In this document: one piece after another, positions 58,143-63,853 of the stretch
Layout of the letters: every line of letters begins with the position of its first letter
How positions within the stretch are numbered: the stretch's first letter is position 1
Translations under genes and position numbers: made by a program
DNA from: Nitrospirota bacterium
Lineage (GTDB): Bacteria; Nitrospirota; UBA9217
Assembly: GCA_963790205.1 (NCBI GenBank)
Contig: CAWBNQ010000001.1
Coordinates: forward strand, 320,001 to 384,000
DNA: 64,000 bases
Direction: 5' to 3'
The notes under the pieces: generated by a model
Database searches by the model: none
The model's input: only the letters and a program-made list of their open reading frames with translations
Told to the model about the DNA's origin: nothing

Positions 58143-58425
58143 AGTTTGAAGCTTGAGCATAGCGTAGGGGCTTCCCTTCAGTTTCGCCTTAAGCAGGACG
58201 GCGAGATCCTAGAGTCTCGGCGGCGCGTTGATTTGAATTACAAACTAAACCATGAATCTTATGCTCGAAGGAAACAATAAATGACCGATTGGAGCACAGC
58301 AATCTGCGAAACAAACGAAATTAAAATGCACTACACGAGAACTGGAGGAAGCAAGCCCCCTTTAATTTTGCTACACGGATTAACTGCTAATGGAGTCTGC
58401 TGGACTGCTTTGGCACATGCTCTAG

Positions 58426-59758
58426 CAGGCCGCTGAAAAAGTGGCCTTCAGTTTAAAAAATTCTATTCGGAGCTTGATTTTTATCCTACTGCAAAGCCTA
58501 TGACACACTTTGTAGCTCATTCAAGATCGCCTTTCGGCACCCATTATCGGGATTCTACTGCGCTTTTGCTATGTAGCAGCCGCAGTTCGCCGTTGGATAT
58601 TTACTATTCGCAGCAGGTTGTATGCAGCTCCGACGAACAAGGCTTGAAGGTGGGTTCGATCTCTTCCCTTGTACCGTGTCCGCCTGAAACCGCCGATGCT
58701 CTTGAGCCATCCGAAGATCTCTTCCACCCGTTTTCGGATTCGCTGGCTGATGTTGTATCCTTCGTGCCGCGTGGTGCGTCCATCTATGGCAGAGCCGCCT
58801 CTTCTTTCGGTGTTGGCCGCAACATGCGGCGTGATCTCTCTGCCCCGCATGGCCTCAACAAAGCCCTGGGTATCGTAGCCCTTATCGGCACCGATGGTCT
58901 TGGGTTTAACGCGTTTCCGCGCCTGACGGGTAAGCATATCCTTGGCCGCCTCCCGTTCCGCATCACCCGTTGCCGGGGTAACGGTGATGTCGACCAGCAG
59001 GCCGTTTCGGTTCTCCATCAAGGCATGGGCGCCGAAAGAAAGCTTAGCCTCCTTGCCCGCGCTCTTCTTCATCAAACGAGACTCGGGATCAGTGGTAGAA
59101 GCATGAGTCTTGTTCGACCGTTTCTCACCCCGAAAGTTCACCGTGGGATTTCCCGGATCATCGTCCGTCGTCGGGCGGTCCGAAGGGTCCTCGTCCTTGG
59201 GACGGAAGCTCTTCAGACTGGCGCAGGCCTCAATAAGGCTGCCGTCCACCGTAAAATGATCATCCGAGAGCAGCCCGCCTTTCCGGGCGATGTTAACCAC
59301 ACGATCAAAAAACTTCACGGCCACCCGATGTTCCAGAAGCCGATCCCGGTTCTTCGTGAACGTCGTGGGATCGAAGGACGACTCTTCCAGGTCCATATCC
59401 AAAAACCAGCGGAAGAGAATGTTATAATCCACCATTTCGCAGAACTGGGTTTCGGAACGCACCGAGTACAGGGCGATCAAGAGCTGGGATTTCAGCAGCC
59501 TCTCCGGCGGGATCGACGGCCGCCCCATGTTGCTGTACATGGAGTCGAAGACCGGCGAAAGCTCTGCAAGAACCGTATCCGCATGGGCTTTGATCGCCCG
59601 CAGAGGATGCTGGGCCGGGACACGCTGTTCAGGAGAAAAGTAACTGAACATCCCGCTCTGAATCTCGTTTTCACCGCGCATGTGGCCTCCTTGTCAACTG
59701 CCGTTGCGCCACTATACGCATTTACATCACGTTTGAAAAGGACTTTTTCAGCAAACTG
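58426..59758 (-). mobile_element. IS5-family element, 1333 bp
   Basis: Inverted repeats CAGGCCGCTGAAAAAGT / ACTTTTTCAGCAAACTG (14 of 17); CTAG duplication at 58422-58425 and 59759-59762. Confidence 0.93.
58569..59681 (-). CDS. IS5-family DDE transposase
   Basis: HPLRAIK, GRPSIPPERLLK, VDGSLIEA, GADKGYD, RKRVEEIFGW. Confidence 0.94.
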   Translation of the reverse strand: MRGENEIQSGMFSYFSPEQRVPAQHPLRAIKAHADTVLAELSPVFDSMYSNMGRPSIPPERLLKSQLLIALYSVRSETQFCEMVDYNILFRWFLDMDLEESSFDPTTFTKNRDRLLEHRVAVKFFDRVVNIARKGGLLSDDHFTVDGSLIEACASLKSFRPKDEDPSDRPTTDDDPGNPTVNFRGEKRSNKTHASTTDPESRLMKKSAGKEAKLSFGAHALMENRNGLLVDITVTPATGDAEREAAKDMLTRQARKRVKPKTIGADKGYDTQGFVEAMRGREITPHVAANTERRGGSAIDGRTTRHEGYNISQRIRKRVEEIFGWLKSIGGFRRTRYKGRDRTHLQALFVGAAYNLLRIVNIQRRTAAAT

Positions 59759-60440
59759 CTAGAGGGAGAATATGACGTAATCATGCCCGATGCTAGGGGT
59801 CATGGAAAGTCGAGCGTGCCTGACTATGGATACCGATACGAAGACCATGCAAACGATGTCGTCGGTCTTATTAAGGCTCTCGGATTTCTTCCTCCGATTC
59901 TGATCGGACACTCCATGGGAGGTATGACTGCAGCCGTGGTGGCAAGTCGTAACCCAAAGCTACTCCGTGGCCTAATCTTGGCTGATCCAACGTTCTTGAG
60001 TCCAAAAGTTCAGCGCGAAGTTTGCGATAGCGATGTGCCCGATCAGCATCGGCGAATTCTCAATACATCATTGGATGAAGTGGTGGCAGAAGCCCGAATT
60101 AGACACCCTGATCGGTCATCGGATACCATCGAGCTAATCGCCCGGGCACGACTTCAAACTAGTATGGCGGCTTTCGACGTTCTCAGGCTACCAAACCCTG
60201 ATTATAAGCAATTGGTGAGTGCGGTTGATGTTCCAAGCCTGCTCGTATTTGGTGATAAAGGTGTGGTTTCGTCTGTTGTTGCCGAAGAGCTGCAACGTCT
60301 TAATCCGAGATTTCAGGTTGACCAGATCCCGGAAGTTGGCCACGGACTCCACTATGACCGGCCCGAGCACTTTGCGGCTGTCGTCAAATCCTTCTTATGT
60401 TCAATTGGTACAGTAACTGAGCCACGCGGAACTTTGTAAC

Positions 60441-61380
60441 CTATAGGGTCACGTCTTGTAACTTGACAATTGCGTTGTGCTGTGATATCGTCGCGACATT
60501 ATGGCCCGTCCCCTTCGCATAGAGTATCCCGGTGCTGTTTACCACGTCACCTCCCGCGGGAACGAAAAGAAGCCTGTCTTCAAGGACGAGCAGGACCGTC
60601 TGAACTTCCTCAATACTCTCCAGCATGCCGGCAAACGCTACAACTGGATCTGCCACGCTTATTGTCTCATGACCAACCATTACCACCTTCTCATCGAGAC
60701 CCCGGACGGCAATCTATCCATCGGCATGAGACAACTGAACGGCGTCTACACGCAGCTCTTTAACAATTGGCATGGCAGGACCGGTCACCTGTTCCAGGGA
60801 CGATACAAAGCCATTCTCATCCAGAAGGACAGCCATCTCCTTGAGGTTTGCCGGTATGTGGTCCTGAATCCTGTGCGGGCCAAGATGGCTGAGACGCCGG
60901 AGGAGTATCGCTGGTCCAGCTACCCGGCTACGGCGGGCAGAGCAAAGCCCCATCCGTGCCTCACCACAGACTGGGTATTGGGCCAATTCAGCGGGAAGCG
61001 GGGCAAGGCGGAGCAAGATACCGGCAGTTCGTCAAATGGGGGATCGGCAAACAATCCGTCTGGACCGACGTGCGGGGCCAGACGCTACTCGGTGAAGAAG
61101 ATTTTGCAGACCGCTTTATAGATCATCTCAGGAAGCATAAAGAGGTGCCCGAGATCACCCGGAGTCAAAAATACCTGAAGAGGCCGGCCCTGGAAAAGCT
61201 GTTTTCGGAAGACATTTTACGGAATAAGCGCAAGCGGAACCGGCGCATAGCCGATGCGGTAGAACGCCATGGGTATCTTCAGAGAGAGCTCGCGGATCAT
61301 CTGAGATTGAACTATGCAACCGTCAGCAGGTTGGTGAGCGCTCAAGAGCAAATATCAAATAACAAGACGTGACCCTATAG
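60441..61380 (+). mobile_element. RAYT/Y1-transposase element bounded by perfect 19-bp inverted repeats
   Basis: CTATAGGGTCACGTCTTGT (60441-60459) / ACAAGACGTGACCCTATAG (61362-61380). Confidence 0.85.
60501..61372 (+). CDS. REP-associated-type tyrosine (Y1 HUH) transposase with C-terminal HTH, 1-nt frameshift near 61018
   Basis: MARPLRIEYPGAVYHVTSRGN, LMTNHYHLL, GHLFQGRY, YVVLNPVRA, YRWSSY; tail QRELADHLRLNYATVSRL in shifted frame. Confidence 0.9.
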
Positions 61381-61425
61381 ATTTGCTATAGATTTGCTAT
61401 AGATTCTATAGATTCCTATAGATTC
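61375..61425 (+). repeat. Five tandem CTATAGATT units with 0-2 nt linkers
   Basis: Units start at 61375, 61386, 61397, 61406, 61416; two more at 61811 and 61829. Confidence 0.92.
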
Positions 61426-61810
61426 TTTACCGCCATGACACACCGACGGATGACGCCGAAACCGCTCAGCGGGATAATAGAAGAAGTCAACACCGCCCTC
61501 CGCGGCTGGGTTGGCTATTTTCATTACCGCAACAGCAGCAAGGCACTTCAGCACCTCAAGTTCCATGTTGAAGCGCGAGTGCGCACGCATCTGCGGAAGC
61601 GGCATAAGATCAAAAGTAGGGCCACGGGGTTTACCAGGTTCACGAACAGGTCTTTGTACGAGAAGTATGGGCTCTATAAAGTGCCGACAACAGCGGGCTG
61701 GACGAAAGCGCATGCCTTGCGATGAAGAACATCGGAAAGCCGTGTGCGGGAAAACCGCATGCACGGTTTGATGAGGGAGGGCTGGTCAATATGACCGTTC
61801 TCTACTCTAC
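61426..61810 (+). mobile_element. 3' fragment of a group II intron (maturase tail, domains V and VI)
   Basis: ORF with VNTALRGWVGYF ending 61725; DV GAAAGCCGTGTGCGGGAAAACCGCATGCACGGTTTGATGAG; ends CTCTACTCTAC. Confidence 0.9.
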
Positions 61811-61853
61811 CTATAGATTCTCCTGACCCTATAGATTCTCCCCAGAATATTCA

Positions 61854-61890: not shown

Positions 61891-62160
61891 ATGGAATTTG
61901 AGTTCGACCCCAAGAAAAGCGACAGCAACAAACAAAAGCATGGGCTTGATTTCTATGAAGCCCAAGCCTTATGGGACGATCCTGATTTTATTGAGATCCC
62001 CGTTCAGACCATTGATGAACCACGCTGTCTGGTGATCGGAATGATAGAGGGGAAACACTGGTCGGGAGTCATCATCTATCGAGGTGATAAAGTAAGAATT
62101 ATATCGGTACGCCGATCAAGGAAAGAGGAGGTGGAGATATATGAAAGTGAAAGCGCGTGA
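61891..62160 (+). CDS. brnT: BrnT-family toxin
   Basis: FEFDPKKSDSNKQKHGLDF, RIISVRRS. Confidence 0.92.
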   Translation: MEFEFDPKKSDSNKQKHGLDFYEAQALWDDPDFIEIPVQTIDEPRCLVIGMIEGKHWSGVIIYRGDKVRIISVRRSRKEEVEIYESESA

Positions 62161-62371
62161 TTTCGACAAGAAATTCGATGAAGGTGCAAATATTACAAAG
62201 CATCTTGATCTGAAGAAGGCAAAAAGACCCGAGCAGGAACAGAAAAGAGTGAACGTCGATTTCCCTGTGTGGATGATTCAATTATTGGACAAAGAGGCAA
62301 AACGCCTGGGAGTCCCCCGCCAGTCGATTATCAAAGTCTGGGTAGCGGAGCGACTTGAAAAAGCTTCGTGA
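62141..62371 (+). CDS. brnA: BrnA/CopG-family antitoxin
   Basis: FDKKFDEG, RVNVDFPVWM, RQSIIKVW; overlaps toxin. Confidence 0.88.
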   Translation: MKVKARDFDKKFDEGANITKHLDLKKAKRPEQEQKRVNVDFPVWMIQLLDKEAKRLGVPRQSIIKVWVAERLEKAS

Positions 62372-62374
62372 ACG

Positions 62375-62430
62375 TTTTAACCACGCCGTCGAGAGGGTCA
62401 TTGAGGGGGCCCCTCACGGCGGCGTTGGGG
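62375..62430 (+). other. attC-like recombination site
   Basis: TTTTAAC-CACGCCGTCGAGAGGGTC...GCCCCTCACGGCGGC-GTTGGGG, 3 nt after the brnA stop. Confidence 0.8.
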
Positions 62431-62493
62431 TTTTTCATTTTTGCATTGTTTCGCGGCAATTAAAAAATATTTATCGTTTTTTAAGAGGTGAGC

Positions 62494-62964
62494 ATGGTAA
62501 TAGATTACATCCCGTACCTAATCCCGCTGTGGATTACTGCCCTCTTTTTAATCAATGATCAAATTCGAAAAGGATCACTTAAAAAAACACAAGCACATTA
62601 TAGCGAGAAATTTTTCACGAATCGTCCGCCCATCGAAACTTTTAAAGCAATAATGGCATTCGCGACGCAAAACCGATATCGCATTGATGACTTCGACGAA
62701 AAGCATCTTGCAGTAATATTAAACGAAAGAATGTCATGGAATAGCTATGGCTCCCTCTATCCGATTTATGTTCATGAGAAGGCAAGCCGAACCGAGGTGA
62801 AAGTTGGTATAACAAGCAAGGCCGGAAAATTTTTTCTAATTAGTCCGTTCACTCAAAGAGTCCTGACCCTACGTCTAGAGCGGATGCTCAATGCTGTTAA
62901 AGGTGCGGTGTTCGCATATGGAATAGAAAAAGAAAGCGAAAATGCCGAAGGCCAAGGACATTAG
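62494..62964 (+). CDS. Hypothetical cassette protein with N-terminal TM
   Basis: AT-rich ORF between two attC sites; GAGGTG before ATG. Confidence 0.75.
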   Translation: MVIDYIPYLIPLWITALFLINDQIRKGSLKKTQAHYSEKFFTNRPPIETFKAIMAFATQNRYRIDDFDEKHLAVILNERMSWNSYGSLYPIYVHEKASRTEVKVGITSKAGKFFLISPFTQRVLTLRLERMLNAVKGAVFAYGIEKESENAEGQGH

Positions 62965-62984
62965 ACCGCAACTCGACACAATGA

Positions 62985-63043
62985 TCCCAACCACGCCGTC
63001 GAGAGGGTCGCTGAATGATGCGCCCCTCAGGGCGGCGTTCCTG
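62985..63043 (+). other. attC-like recombination site
   Basis: TCCCAAC-CACGCCGTCGAGAGGGTC...GCCCCTCAGGGCGGC-GTTCCTG; left arm identical to the 62375 site. Confidence 0.8.
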
Positions 63044-63235
63044 TGCTGATTACAACCAGTATCTCACGCATTTTCTAAGCGCTCGGCTCTGCAAGATTGT
63101 GGGTGTGGCCAGCGTCTGTCTAATTCAGAATGAAGTGATTGATTCAGATCGAAAAATATAGAGTGGATTTCATCCTGAAACAGTTGTGGTTGCGCCGCCT
63201 GTGCATTAGGGTACGCTTAATGGCGAAAGGTGGAA

Positions 63236-63853
63236 ATGAAAAAAGGAATATTTGTAATAGTGCTTAGTGCGCTTTGGCTCACGACGGTGCATGCAGAAAC
63301 ATATGAAAGCCAATTTGGATTCAGTGTCGATCTCCCTTCTCACTGGAATGTTGTCAATATGAAGAACCTGAAAAATAATCCAGAGAAATACTACAGCGCG
63401 CACAATGACAAATCAAAGAATATTGACGATAGCCTCTCGGAAAAATATAAAAAAGAAATACTGAAGGGGAAGGTCGAAATTTATGAGAATTTATCGACCA
63501 ATTACGACAATTTTACCGATAACATTTACGTTCAAATGGATCATGGTGAAATGAAGCCACTAAAAGCAATGGAGCCGGCAATTTGTAATGTGAGTATGTT
63601 AAAAGCTGCTTTTTCACGGTCGTTTGGCAGGGACGTTACCATATACGCCTGTAGAGTCGTTAAGGTGTCGAGCTATGATGCCATTTACATGGACTTTGAT
63701 GGTGCGTATCGGGGAACTCGATCCATTCAATATCAAATATGGAAGCCCTCAAACGATATTATTATAATGACCTTAACAACCAAGAATAAAACTCTAAATA
63801 AACTCAGAGACGATTTTACCGCTATTATTTATTCCCTTAGCGTAACTAAGTAG
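63236..63853 (+). CDS. Secreted hypothetical cassette protein
   Basis: Signal peptide MKKGIFVIVLSALWLTTVHA; AT-rich; FGFSVDLPSHW. Confidence 0.78.
   Translation: MKKGIFVIVLSALWLTTVHAETYESQFGFSVDLPSHWNVVNMKNLKNNPEKYYSAHNDKSKNIDDSLSEKYKKEILKGKVEIYENLSTNYDNFTDNIYVQMDHGEMKPLKAMEPAICNVSMLKAAFSRSFGRDVTIYACRVVKVSSYDAIYMDFDGAYRGTRSIQYQIWKPSNDIIIMTLTTKNKTLNKLRDDFTAIIYSLSVTK

Follow-up and report, generated by a model that had tools for sequence, protein, structure and literature searches.

Tandem tail copies at the ends of TIRtrons, a probable product of nicking, inward copying and resealing by an HUH enzyme

How does a mobile element come to be followed by several copies of its own outermost bases, and why should such copies bracket a fragment of a group II intron? 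The question is raised by a 64,000-nucleotide (nt) stretch of DNA from a Nitrospirota bacterium (assembly GCA_963790205.1, contig CAWBNQ010000001.1, positions 320,001 to 384,000; hereafter the window), in which the gene for a Y1 nuclease of the HUH type lies between terminal inverted repeats (TIRs). The element is a TIRtron, of HUH/Y1 subclass 2.1. We think it probable that TIRtron ends carry tandem copies of their own tail of about 10 nt because the HUH enzyme nicks outside the repeat, allows copying inward and reseals the product. This reading is based on duplicated units whose outer boundary is narrowly placed while the inner one scatters, whose junctions show little microhomology and whose lengths reach that of the element itself.

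Repeated tails at the ends of a TIRtron and its homologues

The features of the locus, all on the forward strand, are as follows.

60436 to 60445, forward: left tail of 10 nt, outside the GGGTCA core, with the putative nick site at its outer edge
60441 to 60459, forward: left perfect 19-bp inverted repeat, with core GGGTCA at 60446 to 60451 and imperfect pairing to 60473
60501 to 61372, forward: TIRYT gene, HUH/Y1 nuclease of subclass 2.1 with a C-terminal helical part resembling a helix-turn-helix (HTH); frameshifted
61362 to 61380, forward: right perfect 19-bp inverted repeat, with the stop codon and the TGACCC core (61370 to 61375)
61375 to 61425, forward: five tandem copies of the right tail, of 11, 11, 9, 10 and 10 nt
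61426 to 61810, forward: 3' fifth of a group II intron, with a maturase remnant (61435 to 61725) and domains V-VI (61735 to 61810)
61811 to 61841, forward: intron 3' exon, a second tail copy followed by a unit beginning at TGACC

A sequence-only reading of the window had described the perfect repeat with a stop codon (TGA, 61370 to 61372) inside its right arm, followed by five units with linkers of 0 to 2 nt, 385 bp of other DNA and two units separated by TGACC, and all of these were found in place. With imperfect pairs counted, the two arms pair over 36 nt at 86%. The unit CTATAGATT starts at 61375, 61386, 61397, 61406, 61416, 61811 and 61829; the first of the five tandem units overlaps the right repeat itself, and the linkers between them are, in order, TG, TG, none and C. 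After the array come the 385 nt (61426 to 61810) and then CTATAGATTCTCC-TGACC-CTATAGATTCTCC. The 4.3-Mb genome contains 12 CTATAGATT words, and seven of them lie at this locus, which exceeds chance.

The array differs between strains. In a related strain, represented by contigs from two peat runs of one study and distinguished by single-nucleotide polymorphisms, the right array at this locus consists of three 10-nt units, 21 bases fewer than in the window, and the left end has gained one copy of the exact left 10-mer (+10 bases). The two distal array units are common to both strains. The same contigs hold a 6-nt extra unit at the left end that has the C5 flank, and a joint reaching back 512 nt from the right tail is present in runs X1 and X7. 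The junctions recur unchanged in contigs of both runs, around an array of three 10-nt units, and an assembly artefact, a possibility that the earlier reading had raised, is thereby ruled out.

Homologous ends were gathered by protein homology, independently of repeats. From 154 distinct ends we left out two of the window's own genome, two motif matches that did not lie at a repeat and three with short flanks, and we scored the remaining 147 as repeated if the first 7 nt after TGACCC recurred within 45 nt. Repeats occur at 44 of the 147 ends, on both sides of the element (24/76 left, 20/71 right) and in close as well as distant relatives (21/59 and 23/88), compared to 166 of 19,960 random positions and 15 of 1,828 TGACCC words outside TIRs. 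At an offset of 50, the rate drops to 1/146. Within the window's genome, which has 28 repeat-like ends (0 in the reversed-genome control), six of the 28 are repeated, versus one of 62 ends from four other types of insertion sequence (IS), whose family labels, save for Pfam matches, are our assumption. Taken singly, these types gave 0/13, 0/29, 0/14 and 1/6, and the lone match is an ISL3-like end adjoining a TIRtron array.

By these sequence counts, end repeats are a family-wide trait of TIRtrons, as expected by the earlier reading, which had proposed to look for arrays beside homologues. Its proposal of a fixed short tag did not hold: the repeat unit is each end's own tail of about 10 nt and varies from end to end.

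Junction positions and the chemistry that they suggest

Sixty duplications were found at non-viral ends. The repeat edge or a point within it is where 58 of them start, and dropping three with long microhomology left a set of 55 junctions. The outer boundary falls +7 to +12 beyond TGACCC in 48/55 (mean +8.8, standard deviation (SD) 1.9). The inner boundary ranges from -40 to +1 (SD 9.5) and lies at the core edge in 28/55, 4 to 8 nt inside in 15/55 and deeper in 11/55. Detection required an 8-nt match, which imposes a length floor on edge-starting units only; among the 26 units that start at least 4 nt inside and are free of this floor, 22 still end at +7 to +12. Long one-sided units of 49, 82, 129, 164, 233 and 372 nt, together with a 902-nt near-whole element, also end at +9 to +13 (234 ends examined).

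Units can extend to genes that are not part of the element. A solo end on C3 of this genome closes, at +8, a 1,024-nt tandem unit that holds a non-element gene of about 300 amino acids. At C3:129170-131670, a CxxC-motif gene, which we take to be DsbA-like, stands in two full and one partial tandem copies, 90-93% alike, with a solo TIRtron end closing the units at +8.

We hypothesize that this pattern arises as follows. The C-terminal helical domain would bind the inverted repeat, and the tyrosine would nick the strand that runs from flank into element, 9-10 nt outside TGACCC, at a set distance and not at a set dinucleotide. After the nick, the flank would end in a 3'-OH, and the enzyme would stay attached to the 5' end of the element; HUH chemistry yields a 3'-OH and a 5'-phosphotyrosine (PMC3333891, PMC8266576). 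The 3'-OH would then be extended inward with displacement of the bound strand, chemistry that is demonstrated for TnpA-REP only, and synthesis would stop or be cut mostly at the core edge or about 6 nt inside it, and sometimes hundreds of bases in. Finally, the new 3'-OH would attack the phosphotyrosine, such that each round adds one unit beside the repeat. The units may thus be abortive starts of rolling-circle-like transposition. There is precedent for the steps: a nick, prime and rejoin model has been proposed for the amplification of bacterial interspersed mosaic elements (BIMEs) (PMC3333891, Fig. 7B legend), and an added oligonucleotide with a 3'-OH resolves the TnpA-REP phosphotyrosine in vitro (PMC8266576).

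Could the host replication machinery make these units, by slipping or switching template at a protein-bound repeat or small hairpin, with no part played by nuclease chemistry? Changes of T-run length in some units (L095) point that way, perfect 11-nt repeats could expand once seeded, and the close-clade tail, which resembles GGGTC at 28/59 ends versus 6% in controls, could fold back on the core. However, microhomology is absent at 24/58 junctions, the predicted tail-core hairpins are marginal (0 to -1.7 kcal/mol), distant relatives repeat at a similar rate (23/88) although a GGGTC-like tail is found at only 6/85 of their ends, and other IS ends in the genome lack repeats. We consider slippage quite improbable. 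A hairpin of tail and core was also rejected as a general signal, since the sequence bias is confined to the close clade and the energies are marginal.

The sequence-only reading had instead proposed cutting at C|T, as in E. coli TnpA-REP (PMC3333891), with a fixed tag laid down by cut-and-rejoin. Many units of the close clade do begin at CT, and 16/55 inner boundaries are compatible with it. Yet CT is possible at both cuts in just 3/55 junctions, the narrowly placed boundary is the outer one and not the CT, and each end has a unit of its own. Among distant relatives, TGACCC is followed by C at 74/88 ends, and therefore no CT exists there. This form of cleavage has at most a slim chance of being correct. 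The broader part of the claim, repeated processing of ends by an HUH enzyme rather than slippage, is supported: the repeats are tied to ends, recur beside homologues and vary between strains.

Filler bases are present in 15/58 junctions. A TG filler between units recurs in unrelated loci (window 61384 and 61395; L078, L079 and L081; C1:543300) and looks as if TGACC had lost ACC.

A third alternative needs no displacement synthesis. The end could be re-inserted or exchanged locally, by strand transfer between sister copies together with adjacent deletion, and the intron piece would then be the remnant left when a duplicated end was deleted into a full-length intron. This is favored by the end of the C14a copy, which adjoins an IS630-like element broken mid-gene at +10/+11, that is, 10-11 nt outside the core. 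Local transfer alone leaves unexplained why short units stop so frequently at the core edge (28/55) or about 6 nt inside it (15/55). It also bears on the intron pieces, and we return to it below.

We also looked for target-site duplications. Left and right flanks match in 1/23 and 1/32 elements, compared to 8% and 7% for shuffled pairs, and this candidate was rejected, as matches are no commoner than in the shuffled pairs.

Group II intron pieces at TIRtron ends

The 385 bp behind the array had been taken for unrelated, foreign DNA. They contain a GIIM maturase remnant (E 7.7e-13) and domains V-VI (Rfam RF00029, all 77 model positions, E 2.1e-9), whose last base is precisely 61810, and their match to a full-length relative, at 89%, starts at position 1529 of 1913. 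The piece is the 5'-truncated 3' end of an endonuclease-less group II intron: it comprises only the last ~385 of ~1913 nt and lacks a complete ribozyme and reverse transcriptase gene. It is single-copy, and the intron is present in this genome solely as this fragment. Full-length copies of about 1.91 kb are known from other genomes, and their protein of 444 amino acids has the domains RVT_1 and GIIM only, with no endonuclease domain. Of 301 genomes of the phylum, 24 have relatives of the intron, as do 20 metagenome stretches; a pattern search of viral contigs for the intron gave no match.

The 5' exons end in GACC or GTCC in 14 of 15 distinct cases, and most read by eye as ends of TIRtrons or miniature elements (L271 and L130 are doubtful). 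A word in domain I that is complementary to the exon, likely EBS1 judging from the sequence, covaries with it, GGTCA being found with TGACC and GGACG with CGTCC. Because of these exon ends and the covarying word, we conclude that this lineage inserts at TGACC^C, which is also the start of the commonest repeat unit. The earlier suggestion that the element deletes or captures neighbouring DNA is borne out in that ends are joined to a truncated IS630 and to truncated introns. Capture of arbitrary DNA is not, as the 3' end of the intron sits at the lineage's own insertion site.

Several further loci show introns at such ends. Four miniature elements that lack a gene, measure about 40-70 nt and have inverted GGGTCA...GACCC ends (L272, L275, L307, L321) each hold a full-length intron in one end. 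Two metagenome contigs (L289 and L294) share a common intron 3' flank, which carries a plain 10-nt unit in one and a TGACC-led unit in the other. In the closest homologue (L013:1820-1990), the place expected for the left repeat, immediately upstream of the start codon, is taken by the end of a different group II intron.

Endonuclease-bearing group II introns cut the bottom strand about 10 nt away from the insertion site. The arrays might then be scars of failed retrohoming, in which the DNA is cut at TGACC^C and again about 10 nt further on and then filled in; the distance equals that of the bottom-strand cut, and the commonest inner boundary is the intron insertion site. Against this, the intron protein lacks the endonuclease domain, and 26/55 units start 4-40 nt inside the repeat. 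Moreover, the intron is found in 24/301 genomes of the phylum and here as a fragment only, yet repeats occur in loci titled Gammaproteobacteria, Thermotogae and Bipolaricaulota. We find this explanation very hard to credit.

Truncated intron pieces were scored by reading and dropped if they were cut by a contig or locus edge or continued into other intron sequence (L128, L138, L139, L141, L144, L150, L289, L293, L301). Thirteen pieces are genuinely truncated, and eight of them begin at a TIR tail or core; no TIR end stands at the start of the pieces in L125, L126, L285, L296 and L304/L306. The same tail lies on both sides of the piece in the window, L014 and L147 (3/8), and in the latter two the 3' exon is laid out as in the window, with a tail copy and then a TGACC-led unit.

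A tail, intron piece, tail arrangement could arise by nicking, inward copying and resealing in a single step, if intron RNA were attached at the end and inward copying ran into it, aborted and was resealed. We hold this extension tentatively, as a proposal about as likely to fail as to succeed and leaning slightly toward the former. Local end transfer needs three steps for the same arrangement. Transfer is favored by five intron pieces joined to a tail unlike their own 3' exon, and by full-length introns in ends that also bear duplicated units (L283, L293).

A number of observations weigh against the nick, copy and reseal reading. For the intron pieces, the tails on the two sides differ in five of the eight (L143, L290, L292, L298, L299), and therefore transfer between ends or adjacent deletion is needed; adjacent deletion after an earlier end duplication would also explain the three cases with matching tails, and local end transfer could produce the intron junctions too. 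For the tail units, the outer boundary spreads over about six positions, looser than a typical HUH site, simple copying does not account for the TG-type filler, and the nicked strand is suggested by the asymmetry of the junctions alone. About 70% of homologous ends (103/147) have no repeat, only 2/92 motif matches from a 14-mer scan of viral contigs are repeated (these matches being mostly unverified as real ends), and the related genomes in our counts are not independent samples. Among the run contigs compared with the C5 copy, no empty site was found, and another IS end follows there. Finally, the tails of near-identical genomic copies agree over just 3-8 nt, which makes it no more than likely that the tail travels with the element.

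Taken together, the data agree less well with slippage, intron scars or C|T tagging than with either nicking with copying and resealing or local end transfer. The latter, with adjacent deletion, is the main rival. We judge it unlikely as the explanation of the arrays, and it probably also occurs alongside nicking, copying and resealing.

Enzyme, precedents and meaning

In a Pfam profile search of the window, the TIRYT protein matches Y1_Tnp (E 2.3e-12). An intact genomic copy has 290 amino acids, scores above the cut-off of NCBIfam NF047646 and carries YVVLNP along with the subclass 2.1 motifs NH[YF]H, [WF][EQ], YxxxNP and SS; NHYH and YxxxNP are each present in 59 of 61 homologues. The best fold match of the predicted structure (pLDDT 87) is TnpA-REP (4ER8, E 8e-7), and a sequence search of the PDB with the protein gave no match. 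The model has three confidently predicted helices at residues 243-288, and HTH_23 and HTH_37 match below the cut-off only (E 0.007-0.05), this C-terminal part having been scanned within the whole protein. One base (A) is missing near 61017 in this assembly, which causes the frameshift. It is present in three near-identical full-length copies, in the truncated C14b copy and in the run contigs; because the run contigs pool all copies, a private mutation and an assembly error are not separable.

The sequence-only reading had put the element, a Y1 gene between terminal inverted repeats, forward as a candidate for an undescribed system. Such genes were named TIRYT, and the elements TIRtrons, in 2013 (Di Nocera et al., PMC3733652), and they were assigned to TnpA-Y1 subclass 2.1 in 2018 (Quentin et al., PMC6006769); a Y1 element with inverted ends is therefore not new. 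The window element resembles the described ones in its Y1/HUH gene with a C-terminal helical extension between inverted repeats, its GGG(G)TCA-type core, the motifs NHYH, FQ, YxxxNP and SS, and solo repeats elsewhere in the genome. The majority of described members have the repeat motif GGGGWSAS. In the window's clade the motif reads AGGGTCAC, one change from it, and the fourth G is present in most distant homologues (74/88). A TGACCC-type end is found at most homologous loci and none is recognisable at 28 locus sides; a search of a plasmid collection gave a single match, at 44%. Five copies in the genome, including a truncated one, are 97-98% identical, and there are diverged pieces besides; for the subclass, intragenomic identity averages 49% (PMC6006769).

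Two other assignments were rejected. IS200/IS605 elements (subclass 1.1) have a short, core-only TnpA with YxxxQ and subterminal hairpins in place of terminal inverted repeats (PMC6006769), and they are ruled out by the 290 amino acids, YVVLNP and the terminal inverted repeats. A classical RAYT or REPtron (subclasses 2.2/2.5) would have flanking GTAG-led REP hairpins, and neither a list of the 25 longest inverted repeats nor a reading of the flanks showed one.

REPtrons nevertheless provide the closest chemical precedent, with the same fold (4ER8) and a model of nicking, primer extension and rejoining for tandem growth (PMC3333891, PMC8266576). The window element differs in that it lacks GTAG-led hairpins, its footprint lies at a set distance from the repeat and not at C|T, and its gene is present as a whole in several copies, while REPtrons reportedly do not move as a unit.

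IS91 and Helitrons are rolling-circle HUH transposons with Y2 enzymes and unlike ori and ter ends. They share an end nick, displacement synthesis, a variable stop and one-sided products with the proposed process. In contrast, the window system has a single Y1 enzyme, and its inverted ends are equivalent, units being gained at both.

The habit of the intron has a precedent as well. RmInt2, likewise an endonuclease-less group II intron, homes into the terminal inverted repeats of ISRm17 (PMC4615759); there, the host element is different, and the portions of that account available to us mention no truncated copies, whereas here 5'-truncated pieces are joined to tails. A DNA element may have a similar preference: one 1.6-kb IS with ends GGGCTGTTGCCCAAA lies at the same point inside three TIRtron repeats (C1:543329, C14:361811, C3:182140), and therefore this second element seems to target these ends.

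Other neighbours of the element in the window are of separate interest. Upstream, an IS5/IS1182-type DDE element (58426-59758), with CTAG on both sides, interrupts an alpha/beta hydrolase gene (58281-58436 and 59783-60439) whose stop codon falls in the TIRtron left tail. Downstream (61891-63853) lie a BrnT/antitoxin pair and two uncharacterized open reading frames, parted by two repeats (62379-62433, 62989-63039) that are presumably attC-like. Three integron integrases in the genome score above the cut-off, all on other contigs and none in the window.

The accounts of TIRtrons, in the portions available to us, describe no outer tail, one-sided duplications, nick position or intron (PMC3733652, PMC6006769). 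We found neither end duplications or introns at TIRtron ends nor experiments on TIRYT enzymes in the literature searched, which held few subscription journals; the supplements and Fig. 9 of PMC3733652 lay outside its scope and may show such flanks. Our analysis adds how frequent the repeats are and that their position is ruler-like, together with variation between strains at one locus, a unit of gene size and intron pieces bracketed by tails.

More speculatively, TIRtrons may represent a third mode of HUH transposition, in which a Y1 enzyme takes a double-stranded terminal repeat as its reference, makes a priming nick about ten bases away from it at either end and reseals the polymerase copy. 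Such in-situ copying and sealing would amplify adjacent genes, supply a primer to an endonuclease-less intron and ligate reverse-transcribed DNA into the chromosome. We regard this generalization as doubtful in its full extent.

In the sample of prokaryotes studied by Quentin et al. (PMC6006769), about 15% have subclass 2.1. Since a strand, a position (+8 to +11) and a product can be read from the junction footprint, the function of TIRYT becomes a simple oligonucleotide assay. If the nick, copy and reseal reading is true, it would give genomic support to a nick, prime and rejoin model hitherto proposed for BIMEs alone, identify a source of local gene duplication and connect a DNA transposase chemically with a retroelement. 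Genome writing could also profit from a nickase able to reseal newly made DNA.
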